Shown: positions 1-8,994 of the stretch, piece after piece
How positions within the stretch are numbered: position 1 is the stretch's first letter
Layout of the letters: each line of letters starts with the position of its first letter
Source: Escherichia coli
Lineage (GTDB): Bacteria; Pseudomonadota; Gammaproteobacteria; Enterobacterales; Enterobacteriaceae
DNA length: 64,000 nucleotides
Reading direction: 5' to 3' (one strand)
NCBI RefSeq assembly: GCF_003334385.1
Contig: NZ_QOWN01000009.1
The notes under the pieces: generated by a model
What the model was told of the DNA's origin: nothing
The model's database searches: none
Seen by the model: only the letters and a program-made list of their open reading frames with translations
Made by a program: the position numbers and the translations under genes

Positions 1-2771
1 CACATGCTGAGGGTGCTGTCCGGGTGCAGCTCCGGGTCGGGCAGGCGGTTACCTGCCGGGTCTGTGGCATACGGGATGCGGATATCCAGATTCGCTGCGG
101 TGGTGTGAACGCCGGTCAGCCTGCCGGTGGTGCTGTAGCTGTAACTCCGGGTCTGGCGCGGGCTGCTGATGCGGATGAGTTCGCCGTTGTCGTTCCAGGT
201 GTAATCGCGGTCAGACAGCAGGCTGTTCAGGTGCTGGCTCTGTAACTGCCCGGCAGGGGTATAAGCGGTGGTGAGTTCATAACGGCCGAAGCTGCGCAGC
301 GTTTCCCGGTGCAGGCGGTCGCGGGTGTACTCCACCAGCGGTGTGTCGCCGAGTTTCATGCCTGCCAGGTAACCGCTGCCGTAGGTCAGCCATTCCACGG
401 CGGGCAGGCTGTCCGGTATACAGCGGTTCGCCAGCCCCTGCGCGTTGTACGCATGTCTGGTCTCATGCTGCCAGAGCAGTGCTTCCGTCTGCGGGTGATG
501 CACCGTCTGACGCTCACCGGTCAGCCGGCCTTTCTCATCATACCTGTAATGCACCGCCACCCGGTGCCCTTCGCTGATATGGCTGATGTCTGTCAGCCAG
601 CCACGTTCGTCATACTGCCACCGCTCTGCGGTTTCACCCTTCACGGTGCGGTGCGTGAGGCGGTCTGCTTCGTCATAGTGCCAGTGGGTGACCAGACCCT
701 CATCCTCGCTGCGGATAAGTTTGCCGGTCAGGTCGTGGTGATAACGCTGTGTGCGGCCGTCAAAGCCGGTTTCCTGTATCAGCCGGTCAAGTACATCGTA
801 ACGGAAGGTGGTGTGGCTGCCGTTTTCACTGGTCAGGCGGATGACCCGTCCGGCAGCATCGTATTCCATACTGCGCGTCAGCCCGCCCTGCGTGGTACGG
901 ACGGCCTTTCCCCACGCATCGTACTGTGTCCCGTTTCTGCTGCCGTCCGGGGCAATGACGGCGGTCAGGTCACCGGCGATGTTGTATTCATACCGCGTTT
1001 CATGGCCCTGCGTGTCTTTCACGGCAATTAACTGTCCACGGCTGTCGTATGCGCGGTACTGACTCAGCCCTTCCTCGCGGTGCACCGCCGTCATCTGCCC
1101 GAAGCGGTCATGGTCATAACGGGTTACATAACCGGAACAGTCGGTGAAGCTCAGCAACTGACCGTAACGGCTCCACGTCATGGTTTTCCGGCTGCCGGTG
1201 GCATCTTCCGTTGCGCAGGGTAAGTCACTGTGTGGATTATCATAACGGTAGCGGGTGATATCGCCGTCAGGGGCAGTTTCCTGAATCAGACGGCCCAATT
1301 CATCATATTCCCGGCGCAATTCCAGCCCGTCAGGCCCGGTGGCTGACGTTAACTGGTTGTGGTGGTTATAGTAAAACGCCGATGCCCTGCCATCCGGCGT
1401 GGTTATGCGCGTGATGAGGCCCGTCACCACATCCGGGCTGTACTCTGTTGTCCTGCCTGCGGCATCCGTCTGTGCCCTGAGCCTGCCCACGGCGTCAAAC
1501 TGACTCTGCGTGACGCTGCCGTCCGCGTGTTCCTTTTTCACCACCCGCTTCAGCCCGGCTTCGCCCTGCGTGTGCAGGACTTCACGGCGGTTCAGGCTGT
1601 CGGTGATGGTGATGCGGTCCTTCTCATACTGATACGTGTAACTTAAGCCTGCCGGGTTTAGCTGTTCTGTCACCCGCCCGTCGCTGTCGTAACGGTAACA
1701 GATTTCCGGTCGGCCCGTGTGACGGTGCGCCACCATCCGGCCCCGGTATTTATCATCGTAAGTAAAGCTGCGCACCTGTGTATTGCTGCGGTCATACACC
1801 GCCGCCAGTTCGCCGCGGGGCGTCCAGCCATAGCGCACCAGCGGCGCGGCAGGTAAATTCTCCGGGTATTCCGGGTCGTGCGTCAGCCACACGGCAGACA
1901 GACGGATGCCGTTGTCCCGGCCATATTCGGTGTAACCCGGCAGGGTATCAGGAAAAGCGGACGGTTCCGTCCCGCCGGAAATGGCCTGCTGCCGGGCTTC
2001 TTCTGCCCGCTGCGCCTGCGTGGTCAGTACCAGCCGGAAGTGACGCCAGGCACCATCCGTCACGCCGGTGATTTCGCCGCTGAATTCACCGGCGGCTTCG
2101 CGGTGGAACGTCTGTGTGCGCCCGAAGCGGTCCACCAGCCCGGTCAGTACCCGGTACGGCGGCAGCGGCGCAGGCAGCACCTCATCCGCTTCCGGCACCC
2201 GCTCACACCAACCGAGCAGCCACCACGGCCCCTGCGGACTGTTTGTCGCCAGATAACGATGCGGACTTAAGCGGAGTTCTTCCGGCAGCGCCTGCCAGAG
2301 TGCGGCCAGCCGGTGACCTTCATCCAGTTTCGCCACGCCGCCGCGCACCAGCCACAGTGACTCGCTGCGGCTGTAACCGTCCTCACCGGGAAACAGGTGC
2401 TCAAAATACAGGCTTCTGCCGCCGTTATCACTGAGTATCAGTGTGTTATCGCGCAGCTGTAAGCGGATATCCGCAGGCATTTTCCAGCCGGGGCCGAGGC
2501 TCCCCACCGGCGCGGGCGTTTTTGTCCGGTAACTGCTGTAGGTGCGGGAGAGGATGAACGGCAGCGGGCCGGGCAGGGCGATGTCGGTTTCACCGGGAAG
2601 GACCTTTGCACCGAGCAGGGGATTGACCGGATGGCCGGACGTCACTCCGCCGGGGCACACCGAACAGGCCACGCCGGTGGGGGCACCAATACGTACCCCG
2701 GCTGAACCCTGAACAATGCTACCGCCATACTGCGTCATGTCACCCTGACGCGCCGCCGGTTTTCCGCTCAT
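1..2771 (-). CDS. rhsB: Rhs-family polymorphic toxin core protein, N-terminal part only (runs off the window start)
   Basis: Hand translation of the minus strand from the ATG at 2771..2769 gives MSGKPAARQGDMTQYGGSIVQGSAGVRIGAP..., the conserved Rhs N-terminus. No minus-strand ORF with an in-window stop is listed for 1..2771, consistent with one long frame leaving the window. Position directly downstream of nikR matches rhsB in E. coli. Confidence 0.75.
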   Translation of the reverse strand, partial: MSGKPAARQGDMTQYGGSIVQGSAGVRIGAPTGVACSVCPGGVTSGHPVNPLLGAKVLPGETDIALPGPLPFILSRTYSSYRTKTPAPVGSLGPGWKMPADIRLQLRDNTLILSDNGGRSLYFEHLFPGEDGYSRSESLWLVRGGVAKLDEGHRLAALWQALPEELRLSPHRYLATNSPQGPWWLLGWCERVPEADEVLPAPLPPYRVLTGLVDRFGRTQTFHREAAGEFSGEITGVTDGAWRHFRLVLTTQAQRAEEARQQAISGGTEPSAFPDTLPGYTEYGRDNGIRLSAVWLTHDPEYPENLPAAPLVRYGWTPRGELAAVYDRSNTQVRSFTYDDKYRGRMVAHRHTGRPEICYRYDSDGRVTEQLNPAGLSYTYQYEKDRITITDSLNRREVLHTQGEAGLKRVVKKEHADGSVTQSQFDAVGRLRAQTDAAGRTTEYSPDVVTGLITRITTPDGRASAFYYNHHNQLTSATGPDGLELRREYDELGRLIQETAPDGDITRYRYDNPHSDLPCATEDATGSRKTMTWSRYGQLLSFTDCSGYVTRYDHDRFGQMTAVHREEGLSQYRAYDSRGQLIAVKDTQGHETRYEYNIAGDLTAVIAPDGSRNGTQYDAWGKAVRTTQGGLTRSMEYDAAGRVIRLTSENGSHTTFRYDVLDRLIQETGFDGRTQRYHHDLTGKLIRSEDEGLVTHWHYDEADRLTHRTVKGETAERWQYDERGWLTDISHISEGHRVAVHYRYDEKGRLTGERQTVHHPQTEALLWQHETRHAYNAQGLANRCIPDSLPAVEWLTYGSGYLAGMKLGDTPLVEYTRDRLHRETLRSFGRYELTTAYTPAGQLQSQHLNSLLSDRDYTWNDNGELIRISSPRQTRSYSYSTTGRLTGVHTTAANLDIRIPYATDPAGNRLPDPELHPDSTLSM

Positions 2772-2973: not shown

Positions 2974-5777
<2,804 letters not shown>

Positions 5778-5781
<4 letters not shown>

Positions 5782-6722
5782 GCGTGCGCTCCTTCATGAC
5801 GACGAATGCGCGGGTCCAGCGCGGCGTTGAGCAAATCGACAATCAAATTACAGACCACAAAAACCACCACCATCATCAGCGTAAAGCACTGGATCACCGG
5901 ATAGTCACGGTTAAAAATCGCCGACACCGCATAGCGCCCGACGCCCGGCCAGGCAAAGATGTTTTCGATAATCATCGTCCCGCCAATCAGTTCGCCGATA
6001 TGCATCCCCACGGCGGTGATCATCGGCAGCGAGGCATTGCGCAGGATGTGGCGACGTTCGGTCTGTTTGTCGTTCAGGCCGCGCAGACGCGCCCAGGTGA
6101 CGTGACGCTGACCGGCGACGTCCAGCATACTGGCGCGCAGTAAACGCGCGTTAATCGCCAGCGACATAAAGGCAATGGAAACCGCAGGCAAAATGATGTG
6201 CTGCCAGCCGCCGTAACCCATCGCGGGTAGCCATTGCAGATACACCGAAAACGCCATCACCAGTAAAAACGCCAGCCAGAAGTTAGGCATCGACACGCCA
6301 AGAAACGCGATGAAACGTACGGCGAAATCCGGCAGACGGTCGCGATGGCGCGCCGCCCAGATACCGAGCGGTACGGAAGTGAGCAGAATTAATACCAGCG
6401 CCGCACCTGCAAGTTCCAGCGTGGCGGGCAGGAAGTTCAGCATATCGTCCAGTACCGGGCGTTGGCTGGCGAATGAGATACCAAAGTCAAGATGCAGCGC
6501 CTTCCACAACCAGGTGCCGTACTGGACGTACAGCGGCTGATCCAGTCCCAGCATGGTGCGGGTAGAGGCCAGCATCTCCGGCGTCGGCGGCAGGTTAGAC
6601 AGACGCAAATAATCGAGCGCCGGGTCGCCGGTACCGAGGCGCAGCATCAGAAAAATGATCACCGAGGCGGCGAGCACCATCGGGATCAGCAGCAGAAAGC
6701 GGCGTAATACGTAACGCAACAT
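5778..6722 (-). CDS. nikB: Nickel ABC transporter permease NikB
   Basis: 314 aa hydrophobic ORF, binding-protein-dependent permease family; operon position. Confidence 0.93.
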
Positions 6723-8296
6723 TAAGGTTTCACCGGTTTAATCTGTTCGAACGGAATTTCGGTGGCGATCGGCGCGTAGGGGATGTTACCCAGCTCCGGT
6801 TTTGATACCACCATCATTGAGATGTAACTGATAGGCAGATAAACCGCCTCGTCATGCAGACGGGTCAGAATGTCGCGATACAGCGCCTGACGTTGCGTTT
6901 CGTCATGGGTCGCCAGCACTTCGCCGATCTCTTTATCAATCAGCGGTTTGTCGGCTAATCCTTGCTGTGCCTGGAAGTCAGCGTGTGACGGTACGCGCAT
7001 TGAACTGAGGAAGGCGTGTGGATCATATGGCGCGCCCCAGGTGCGGTGGAAAATCATGCCAAAACGACCGTCGCGCTGACGAGCATAGATACTGCTCTCT
7101 TCTTCGCCAATCAGCGAGACATCTGCGCCAATCTGGCGCATATCAGCCTGAATGATTTCCGCCATCGATTTGCTTAACGCATCGGTGCCGATGAACGAAA
7201 GTTCAATGCGCAGCGGCTGACCATTTTTCTCGCGGATGTCTTTGCCCGCAGGCAGCGTCCAACCGGCTTTTTCCAGCAACGCTTTCGCTTTTTGCGGATC
7301 GTACTGGCTCGGTTTCAGGCCGAGGTTGGCGTAGGGCACAGAAGGGGCAAACAGGGTGTCGGCGACCTGCTGGGTGCCATACAACGCGTTATCAATCAGC
7401 GATTTTTTGTTTACCGCGTAATTAAGAGCTTCACGTACTGCCAGCTCGTTGGTGGGGGCTTTGGCGGTATTGAGCGCCAGCATCACGGTTTCGATCGGCT
7501 GTGACAGTTGGGTGTGGTAAGCCGGATTCTGGCTAAAGCGGGCGAAGGTATCGAGCGGTAATAACCCTTCGTTTCCGTACAGCAGGTCGATATCGCCAGT
7601 TTCAAACGCCACCGCGCGGGTAGTCGGGTCCGGGATGACGTTAAAGGTGATCTTTTTAATCGCTGGCTTTTCGCCCCAGTAGTTTTCGTTACGGACGAAG
7701 ACATCGTACTGATTCAGTTTCGATTCCTGCAAAATCCACGGTCCGGTGCCAATCGGCGCTTTAATTCCGTTCATGGTTTCATGGTTTTTAAACTGCGAGG
7801 GAGCGATAAAACGGAAAGGACGGGGCAGGGCCAGTTCTTGCAGGAAAGGATAGTAGGCGCTTTTCAGGGTAATTTGCAGCTCTGTTTTACTGAGTGCTTT
7901 AACATCAACAATCTGGTTTGCCAGCTCCAGCCAGGCGTGACGTTGACGGTTATCGAGCACTGCGCGGAAGTTTTCTGCCGCCGCCTCGGCATCGAACGGT
8001 TCACCGTTGGAGAATTTCACGTCATCACGCAGGGTGAAGGTCCAGGTTTTACCATCTTCTGAATGAGTCCAGCTTTTTGCCAGCCACGGGATCACCGAAC
8101 CGTCTGCCTGATATTTCACCAATGGTTCATAAACCATGCTCTGGGCGAACATCTGGTTAGGCGTGTAAAGGTGCGGGTTTAGTGGCCCGACATTCACCGG
8201 CCAGGCGGTGGTGATTTCATCTGGTGCAGCGGCATGGACGATAAAAGACGCACAAGCCAGCAGCGCAAATAGAGTGCGGCGGAGTGTGGAGAGCAT
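6722..8296 (-). CDS. nikA: Periplasmic nickel-binding protein NikA
   Basis: 524 aa ORF with signal peptide [24 protein letters not shown]; family 5 solute-binding protein; first gene of nikABCDE-nikR. Confidence 0.95.
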
Positions 8297-8344
8297 GGTA
8301 ACCCCAATGGATTAAAATAGATGGCGGAAATAAGTATGACGATT

Positions 8345-8372
8345 TTAAGTATTCGTCATACTGATTACCTGT
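8345..8372 (-). promoter_or_regulatory. NikR operator in the nikA promoter: GTATGA-N16-TCATAC inverted repeat
   Basis: gtatgacgattttaagtattcgtcatac read directly about 50-75 bp upstream of the nikA start; matches the known NikR operator architecture. Confidence 0.8.
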
Positions 8373-8406
8373 TCTGGATCAATAGATGGGCAGTCGGGTG
8401 GGCGGA

Positions 8407-8994
8407 TCAGTTAACTGAATCGATCCATTGCACACTGTCGGCGGTGAGCGTAAAGGGAGTAGGGGTGCAGATCGCAAGGCTTAAATTTTCAAGCTGACAA
8501 TGGCTGACTGACAGCGAGGAGTGATAGGTGCTGTCTACGCTGACGATTTGCCAGGCGCTGCCGCCACGCTGTTTAACGATGGCTTCTTTGCGCGTCCAGA
8601 TGCGCCAGAACATTTCCAGTTGCTGATCAGGATGCACGGCGTCCATCTCAGCGTGTTCCCCGAGGCTGAATACGGCGTTCGCCAGCCAGCGCCAGTTGGC
8701 GCGCGGGCGAATCACTTCGATATCGCAGCCGACTTCGCCTTCATCACTCAACAGCAGGGCGATATCGTCACCGCTATGGCTTAAGTTGAACCATAGCGGC
8801 ATTTCCGGCGCAAATGCAGGTTTGCCTTGTTCGCCATAGATGATCTCCGGTAGCGGGGAAAGCGTGTGCGAAAGCAATGCACGCCCCGCCAGCCAGCGTT
8901 CGCGTCGTGGACCTTGCGGTGCTTGCTCGCGTAAACCCGGTGGCAGTGGAGCTGCGCTTAAGGTCGAAACTTTCCCCAGAACTATCCGATACAT
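8407..8994 (-). CDS. acpT: 4'-phosphopantetheinyl transferase AcpT
   Basis: 195 aa ORF MYRIVLGKVSTLSAAPLPPGLREQ...; synteny between nikA and yhhT. Confidence 0.9.
   Translation of the reverse strand: MYRIVLGKVSTLSAAPLPPGLREQAPQGPRRERWLAGRALLSHTLSPLPEIIYGEQGKPAFAPEMPLWFNLSHSGDDIALLLSDEGEVGCDIEVIRPRANWRWLANAVFSLGEHAEMDAVHPDQQLEMFWRIWTRKEAIVKQRGGSAWQIVSVDSTYHSSLSVSHCQLENLSLAICTPTPFTLTADSVQWIDSVN

Follow-up and report, generated by a model that had tools for sequence, protein, structure and literature searches.

Where in the nikA upstream region does the nickel-responsive repressor NikR bind, and how does its operator lie relative to the promoter that it would control? The DNA analyzed here (the window, a 64-kb stretch of the Escherichia coli chromosome) has the gene order rhsB-nikREDCBA-acpT-yhhT...; its minus strand carries the nik operon. 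An earlier note, made from the letters of the window, had placed an exact match to the NikR operator at 8345..8372. The motif and its N16 spacing are as described but the coordinates are not: the match lies at 8334..8361, both ends having been displaced rigidly by +11, and the interval first given contains only one half-site, TCATAC at 8356..8361. Positions in that note can therefore be offset by about +11 in this window although the motif call itself is correct. We conclude that 8334..8361 is almost certainly the well-characterized E. coli NikR operator of the nikABCDE-nikR promoter, at which Ni-NikR represses an FNR-dependent class II promoter. The NikR operator at this locus is already known; it is a textbook site and, as such, an ordinary one.

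The nik operon and the position of its operator

The six nik open reading frames are all full length, which bears out the description of the operon as intact. They are listed below together with a putative ribosome-binding sequence.

nikA, 8296..6722, minus strand: periplasmic nickel-binding protein, 524 aa, 1575 bp; intact open reading frame, RefSeq annotation of identical DNA
nikB, 6722..5778, minus strand: 314 aa, full-length open reading frame
nikC, 5781..4948, minus strand: 277 aa, full-length open reading frame
nikD, 4948..4184, minus strand: 254 aa, full-length open reading frame
nikE, 4187..3381, minus strand: 268 aa, full-length open reading frame
nikR, 3375..2974, minus strand: Ni-responsive ribbon-helix-helix repressor, 133 aa, full-length open reading frame
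Shine-Dalgarno-like GGGG, 8302..8305, minus strand: 5 nt 5' of the nikA ATG, a reading of the sequence

The nikBCDE products, permeases and ATPases, are together encoded by 3381..6722. The lengths of nikB, nikC, nikD, nikE and nikR equal those in the RefSeq annotation of strain ER1709, and the 1575 bp of the window nikA equal the length annotated in strains other than ER1709. In ER1709 itself (L001:5524-7097) nikA is annotated as a frameshifted pseudogene, whereas the window gene is intact and encodes 524 aa. The window NikR is identical at 133 of 133 residues to the crystallized E. coli protein (PDB 1Q5V, 2HZA, 2HZV and 3OD2), of which 2HZV is the NikR-operator complex.

The acpT gene shares the strand of nikA and has its stop at 8407; with the nikA start at 8296 this gives a 110-bp intergenic region, 8297..8406, exactly as delimited in the earlier note. 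It contains the following elements, for which positions within the operator are counted in the nikA sense (minus strand, GTATGACGAATACTTAAAATCGTCATAC), operator position n being window position 8362-n.

NikR operator, 8334..8361, palindromic: GTATGACGATTTTAAGTATTCGTCATAC, an exact match to GTATGA-N16-TCATAC
distal half-site GTATGA, 8356..8361, minus strand: operator positions 1-6, with 1.55-2.0 bits per column over 76 distinct sequences
proximal half-site TCATAC, 8334..8339, minus strand: operator positions 23-28, with 1.44-2.0 bits per column, overlapping the putative transcription start
extended inverted repeat, 8333..8362, palindromic: arms of 10 bp each, AGTATGACGA at 8333..8342 and TCGTCATACT at 8353..8362, around a 10-bp centre

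A fixed-gap pattern search (N{16,16}) returned a spacer of 16 bp between the hexamers, so that the spacing stands on recount, and an operator length of 28. The operator ends 37 nt upstream of the nikA ATG, that is, in the nikA promoter as had been proposed, and the acpT end is 45 nt upstream of the operator.

The exact pattern GTATGA-N16-TCATAC has a single match in the window, and none of 100 dinucleotide-preserving shuffles yields one. When up to two mismatches are allowed the window contains 3 sites against 1.3 expected, a number reached by 13 of the 100 shuffles. The two additional sites are GTCTGT-N16-TCATAC at 588..615, on the rhsB side, and GAATGA-N16-TCATTC at 53674..53701, a perfect hexamer palindrome inside glgA; each has two mismatches, and both were set aside as look-alikes within chance expectation. 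The earlier note had proposed a scan with a NikR position weight matrix. With a matrix built from 51 distinct non-Escherichia operators, the half-site columns alone score 8334..8361 at 26.3 bits and the next best site in the window at 11.1 bits, in agreement with the call. Use of all 28 columns gives the site 43.9 bits (minus strand) and 21.4 bits (plus strand), a difference that we attribute to asymmetry of the signal in the spacer.

Conservation and proposed architecture of the nikA promoter

The 301 bp around the operator found a match in all 5426 of 5426 complete E. coli genomes, in each case between annotated nikA and acpT. The 110-bp intergenic region has at least 99% identity in 5199 of these genomes and 95-99% in the other 227. 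Alignment of three divergent E. coli alleles shows both hexamers unchanged, as are the FNR halves TTGAT and AACAG (see below), and in one divergent strain GTATGAT replaces GTATGAC, a change at position 7 beyond the hexamer.

The comparison was then extended to 80 loci, collected by a scan with the NikA protein taking one genome per species; most are from Enterobacterales, and the others include some alpha-proteobacteria, Halomonas, a Desulfovibrio MAG and two Firmicutes. The N16 motif is found upstream of nikA exactly in 53 of the 80, with one mismatch in 22 and with two mismatches in one, and nothing comparable to the E. coli-type motif is found upstream of nikA in three (Desulfovibrio, Paenibacillus and Domibacillus). 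Of the 77 loci with a site upstream, 76 have their best match at N16 and one (L075) has it at N15. Elsewhere in these loci, in the remaining 989 kb, there are no sites with at most one mismatch.

A NikR homologue is encoded in 62 of the 80 loci within the fetched DNA. An operator with at most two mismatches is also present in ten loci that lack nikR up to 6 kb from nikA (L016, L021, L028, L046, L047, L050, L052, L053, L055 and L083). These are Enterobacterales (Citrobacter, Samsonia, Atlantibacter, Edwardsiella and Arsenophonus), and their regulator is presumably encoded elsewhere in the genome. In the alpha-proteobacterial and unclassified proteobacterial loci nikR is found just upstream of nikA and not at the operon end, on the strand opposite to nikA in L071, L072, L073 and L076 and on the same strand in L075; nikR was not found in loci L069 and L078.

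Two Escherichia loci have additional DNA between operator and gene. In Escherichia sp. E1V33 (L005:5502-6000) about 427 bp of inserted DNA (5531..5957) lie between the operator (5502..5529) and nikA. The insertion contains repeated G+C-rich palindromic units (GTCCCCTCGCCCCTCTGGGnAGAGGG...) and is followed by a degenerate copy of the right half-site; the FNR box, operator and -10 are intact upstream of it, and the operon would have a very long leader if the promoter is still used. In Escherichia sp. MOD1-EC7003 (L007:5852-5980) the operator (5824..5851) and the nikA ATG are separated by an element of about 110 bp. Its end carries GTATGACG, a look-alike of the NikR half-site, and we take the element to resemble an ERIC/IRU repeat (AATCCCCAGGCGCTTACTAAAGTAAGTGACTGAGGTG).

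To read the conservation column by column we brought 76 distinct sequences into register at the operator, all in the nikA sense. This footprint carries approximately zero information outside operator positions -21 to +29. Within the operator, positions 7-8 and 21-22 (YG/CR) are conserved in addition to the hexamers, with T at position 7 in 58 of the 76 sequences. In the proximal half-site TCACAC is the most frequent variant (10 of 76). Two elements of a core promoter can be assigned from this footprint, and a third conserved block lies upstream of the operator.

-10 hexamer TAAAAT, 8347..8342, minus strand: operator positions 15-20, inside the spacer; putative, from conservation
transcription start, A at 8335 +/-1 nt, minus strand: operator position 27; predicted
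FNR box TTGATccagAACAG (plus strand CTGTTctggATCAA), 8382..8369, minus strand: centre 8375.5, 8 of 10 matches to TTGAT-N4-ATCAA

The sequence TAnAAT occupies operator positions 15-20 in 70 of the 76 loci (TAAAAT in 53, TAGAAT in 10, TACAAT in 5 and TATAAT in 2). Given that only the third base varies, as expected for a sigma-70 -10 element, we read it as the -10, and a conserved -10 at 8347..8342 would imply a start at about 8335. With the start at 8335 the -10 extends from -12 to -7, the FNR box is centred at -40.5, the operator covers -26 to +2 and the leader is 39 nt. These putative assignments draw on sequence conservation and on their fit to the published FNR position of -40.5 (below). The -35 region, AGGTAA at operator positions -9 to -4, matches TTGACA at two of six bases and is not conserved in the 76-sequence footprint. 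A sigma-70 consensus scan of 8200..8520 found no promoter, as would be expected for an activator-dependent promoter with a poor -35, for which such a scan is uninformative.

The FNR box spans operator positions -21 to -8 and consists of the halves TTGAT and AACAG on either side of the spacer CCAG. The earlier note had reported only a partial ATCAA half-site near 8385..8395. That half-site exists, although at 8378..8382, and it is the strong half of the box at 8369..8382, which is the FNR site that the note was looking for. Over the 76 sequences TTGAT has 1.4-1.8 bits, and in the second half C has 1.1 and A 1.7 bits. A box at this fixed offset with at most three mismatches is present in 70 of the 76 loci scored (L075, with the N15 operator variant, was not included) and is kept in every Enterobacterales locus among them. 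All six exceptions (L069, L071, L072, L073, L076 and L078) are non-Enterobacterales in which the NikR operator is kept and the FNR box is replaced; five have a TTGAC or TGGAC -35-like sequence, and L078 has none. Hence these non-enteric relatives appear to carry an ordinary TTGAC -35 in place of the FNR box while retaining the operator.

A count of FNR consensus sites across the window is not significant (37 sites with at most two mismatches against 27 expected), and for that reason our call does not depend on it. The call is based instead on how well the box is conserved, on where it lies and on published ChIP results. In Myers et al. 2013, nikABCDE appears among the operons under direct FNR activation, with an FNR-dependent change in expression (Table 1, PMC3688515); these authors report an FNR ChIP-seq peak upstream of nikA with one FNR site, at -40.5 (PMC3688515).

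Three features conserved across genera are not accounted for by the NikR hexamer contacts or the -10, namely GAAT, CCAG/GATC and TACTTAT. The inner operator bases GAAT (positions 8-11; window 8351-8354) have 1.2-1.8 bits outside the hexamers and the -10 and are partly symmetric with positions 18-21; from their conservation they may be an extra contact for NikR or RNA polymerase. The FNR-box spacer CCAG is conserved across genera at 0.8-1.4 bits (window 8374-8380, operator positions -19 to -13). Together with the left FNR half-site it forms a GATC Dam site (8380..8377), which is created, with C at -16, in 68 of the 76 sequences. To our knowledge, FNR recognition does not account for the CCAG/GATC conservation. 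TACTTAT is considered below.

Other readings of the conserved block

The palindrome and the T-rich run next to it could also function mostly at the RNA level, as a hairpin that forms a weak intrinsic terminator of acpT read-through, with the NikR match being secondary. In the nikA sense the predicted folding energy of the RNA is -15.6 kcal/mol (z = -5.6 relative to shuffled sequences), UUAUUUCC (RNA UUAUUU) comes after the stem, and the acpT end is 45 nt away with no other terminator between the genes in our scan. Any palindromic operator folds well on paper, however, and the terminator scan of 8200..8520 does not call this one; it has an A+U-rich stem with G-C at only four of ten pairs, a loop of 10 nt and an interrupted T-run. 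Moreover, if transcription begins at 8335, the hairpin would be absent from the nikA mRNA. Among 55 distinct operators the stem shows uncompensated changes, with A.C at pair 3/26 in nine of them and mismatches at 6/23 and 8/21, and pair 9/20 is the sole one to show AT to TA swaps. The sequence rather than the pairing is thus conserved, which is the pattern of a protein-binding site. The T-rich tail also does not follow acpT synteny, with 4.3 T per 8 in the 69 loci that lack an adjacent co-oriented acpT against 3.9 in the seven that have one. On the strength of the uncompensated changes and of this independence we rejected an acpT terminator as the main role, and consider it very improbable.

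It is likewise conceivable, at a probability that we put lower still, that the block is chiefly the target of another regulator, such as NarL through TACTTAT, and that NikR is not its main binder. TACTTAT (8336..8330, minus strand) is a perfect TACYYMT heptamer overlapping the proximal half-site and the putative +1, and NarL control of nikA has been reported with its site unmapped as of 2009 (PMC2718512). Against this, the window holds 23 NarL heptamers, which amounts to about 0.1 expected in 110 bp, and heptamer positions 4-7 are weakly conserved (0.5-1.05 bits). The dyad symmetry, the 16-bp spacing and the co-occurrence of nikR in 62 of the 80 loci fit NikR and not NarL, and a NarL site could coexist with the operator without replacing NikR. 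TACTTAT could be a candidate for the unmapped NarL site at nikA; with a chance expectation of about 0.1 such heptamer between the two genes, we treat it as a lead only. A further functional contact in the operator region, whether NarL at +1 or a methylation-sensitive binding of FNR, is in our estimate unlikely, though with some real chance of being correct.

The remaining idea, that the palindrome is a chance feature of AT-rich intergenic DNA and regulates nothing, has as its sole point that short palindromes do arise by chance, and it has practically no likelihood left: it is already refuted by the conservation data, in which 75 of 80 orthologous loci keep the motif in its position while the flanks have randomized, as well as being at odds with the 100 shuffles that gave no match, the lack of comparable sites in the 989 kb of neighbouring DNA, and the existence of published biochemistry and a co-crystal structure.

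Proposed control of the operon and comparison with known systems

We therefore return to 8334..8361 as the NikR operator. The present analysis shows the sequence of the site, that it is unique in the window and where it lies relative to nikA; it further shows an intact operon and repressor and the conservation across species of the operator, FNR box and -10. Ni-dependent NikR binding and the occupancy and activation by FNR are taken from the literature. According to a review, Ni-NikR has nanomolar affinity for GTATGA-N16-TCATAC in the nikABCDE promoter and represses the operon (PMC7055735, citing Chivers & Sauer 2000 and 2002 and Bloom & Zamble 2004). In the NikR tetramer each ribbon-helix-helix domain inserts a beta-sheet into the major groove, one at each half-site (PMC4486848, PMC6332059).

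Applied to the window, these data suggest the following model. Under nickel sufficiency, each GTATGA half-site would receive in its major groove one ribbon-helix-helix domain of the Ni(II)-loaded NikR tetramer. From one half-site centre to the other there are 22 bp, approximately two helical turns, so that both half-sites would be on one face of the DNA. The operator (about -26 to +2) would enclose the TAAAAT -10 and the start site, and bound NikR would consequently exclude RNA polymerase and switch nickel import off; steric exclusion is the most likely mode of repression, although the occlusion step is deduced from this geometry. The promoter would have no usable -35 and would depend on FNR at TTGATccagAACAG, centred at -40.5, for class II activation. 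FNR dependence combined with NikR repression would lead to expression of the operon anaerobically and only at low nickel.

The window thus carries an intact nickel-uptake operon, complete with regulator, operator, activator site and core promoter, which would be repressed by nickel and induced under anaerobiosis. In the footprint drawn from the 80 species, the interleaving of the NikR operator with the -10 and the FNR box is clearly seen.

Among more distant systems, the Desulfovibrio, Paenibacillus and Domibacillus nikA-like loci are without the E. coli-type motif. Helicobacter NikR belongs to the same repressor family, and the H. pylori sites are without an identified consensus operator. The delta-proteobacterial NikR box, GTGTTAC-N13/14-GTAACAC, shares with the present operator the repressor family and the two-half-site layout of 27-28 bp but differs in its half-site sequences.

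As an FNR-activated promoter, nikA would resemble the class II promoters of the dmsA, narG, yfiD and focA type, in which a box centred about 40.5-41.5 bp upstream of the start is combined with a poor -35 and a good -10. Myers et al. 2013 place nikABCDE in Category 1, with class II FNR-activated promoters (PMC3688515). It differs from others of this class in its degenerate second half-site, AACAG instead of ATCAA, and in the unusual conservation of the spacer CCAG.

Closer to E. coli, comparative genomics has given an enterobacterial NikR box consensus of GTATGAT-N13/14-ATCATAC (quoted in PMC545781), which agrees with our 76-sequence footprint, GTATGA-Y-G...C-R-TCATAC. E. coli departs from this consensus at positions 7 (C) and 22 (G), a minority CG/CG version, and it is owing to C7/G22 that the perfect palindrome is longer in E. 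coli. The operator of E. coli is usually described as 6-16-6; in the window its flanks extend this to a 10-10-10 inverted repeat. The E. coli K-12 nikABCDE operator for NikR is reportedly the work of Chivers and Sauer in 2000, and the co-crystal is said to be that of Schreiter et al. in 2006. The window matches the K-12 nik operator in its half-sites, spacing and genomic position, and its repressor is identical residue for residue; the site in the window is hence the published E. coli nik locus itself.
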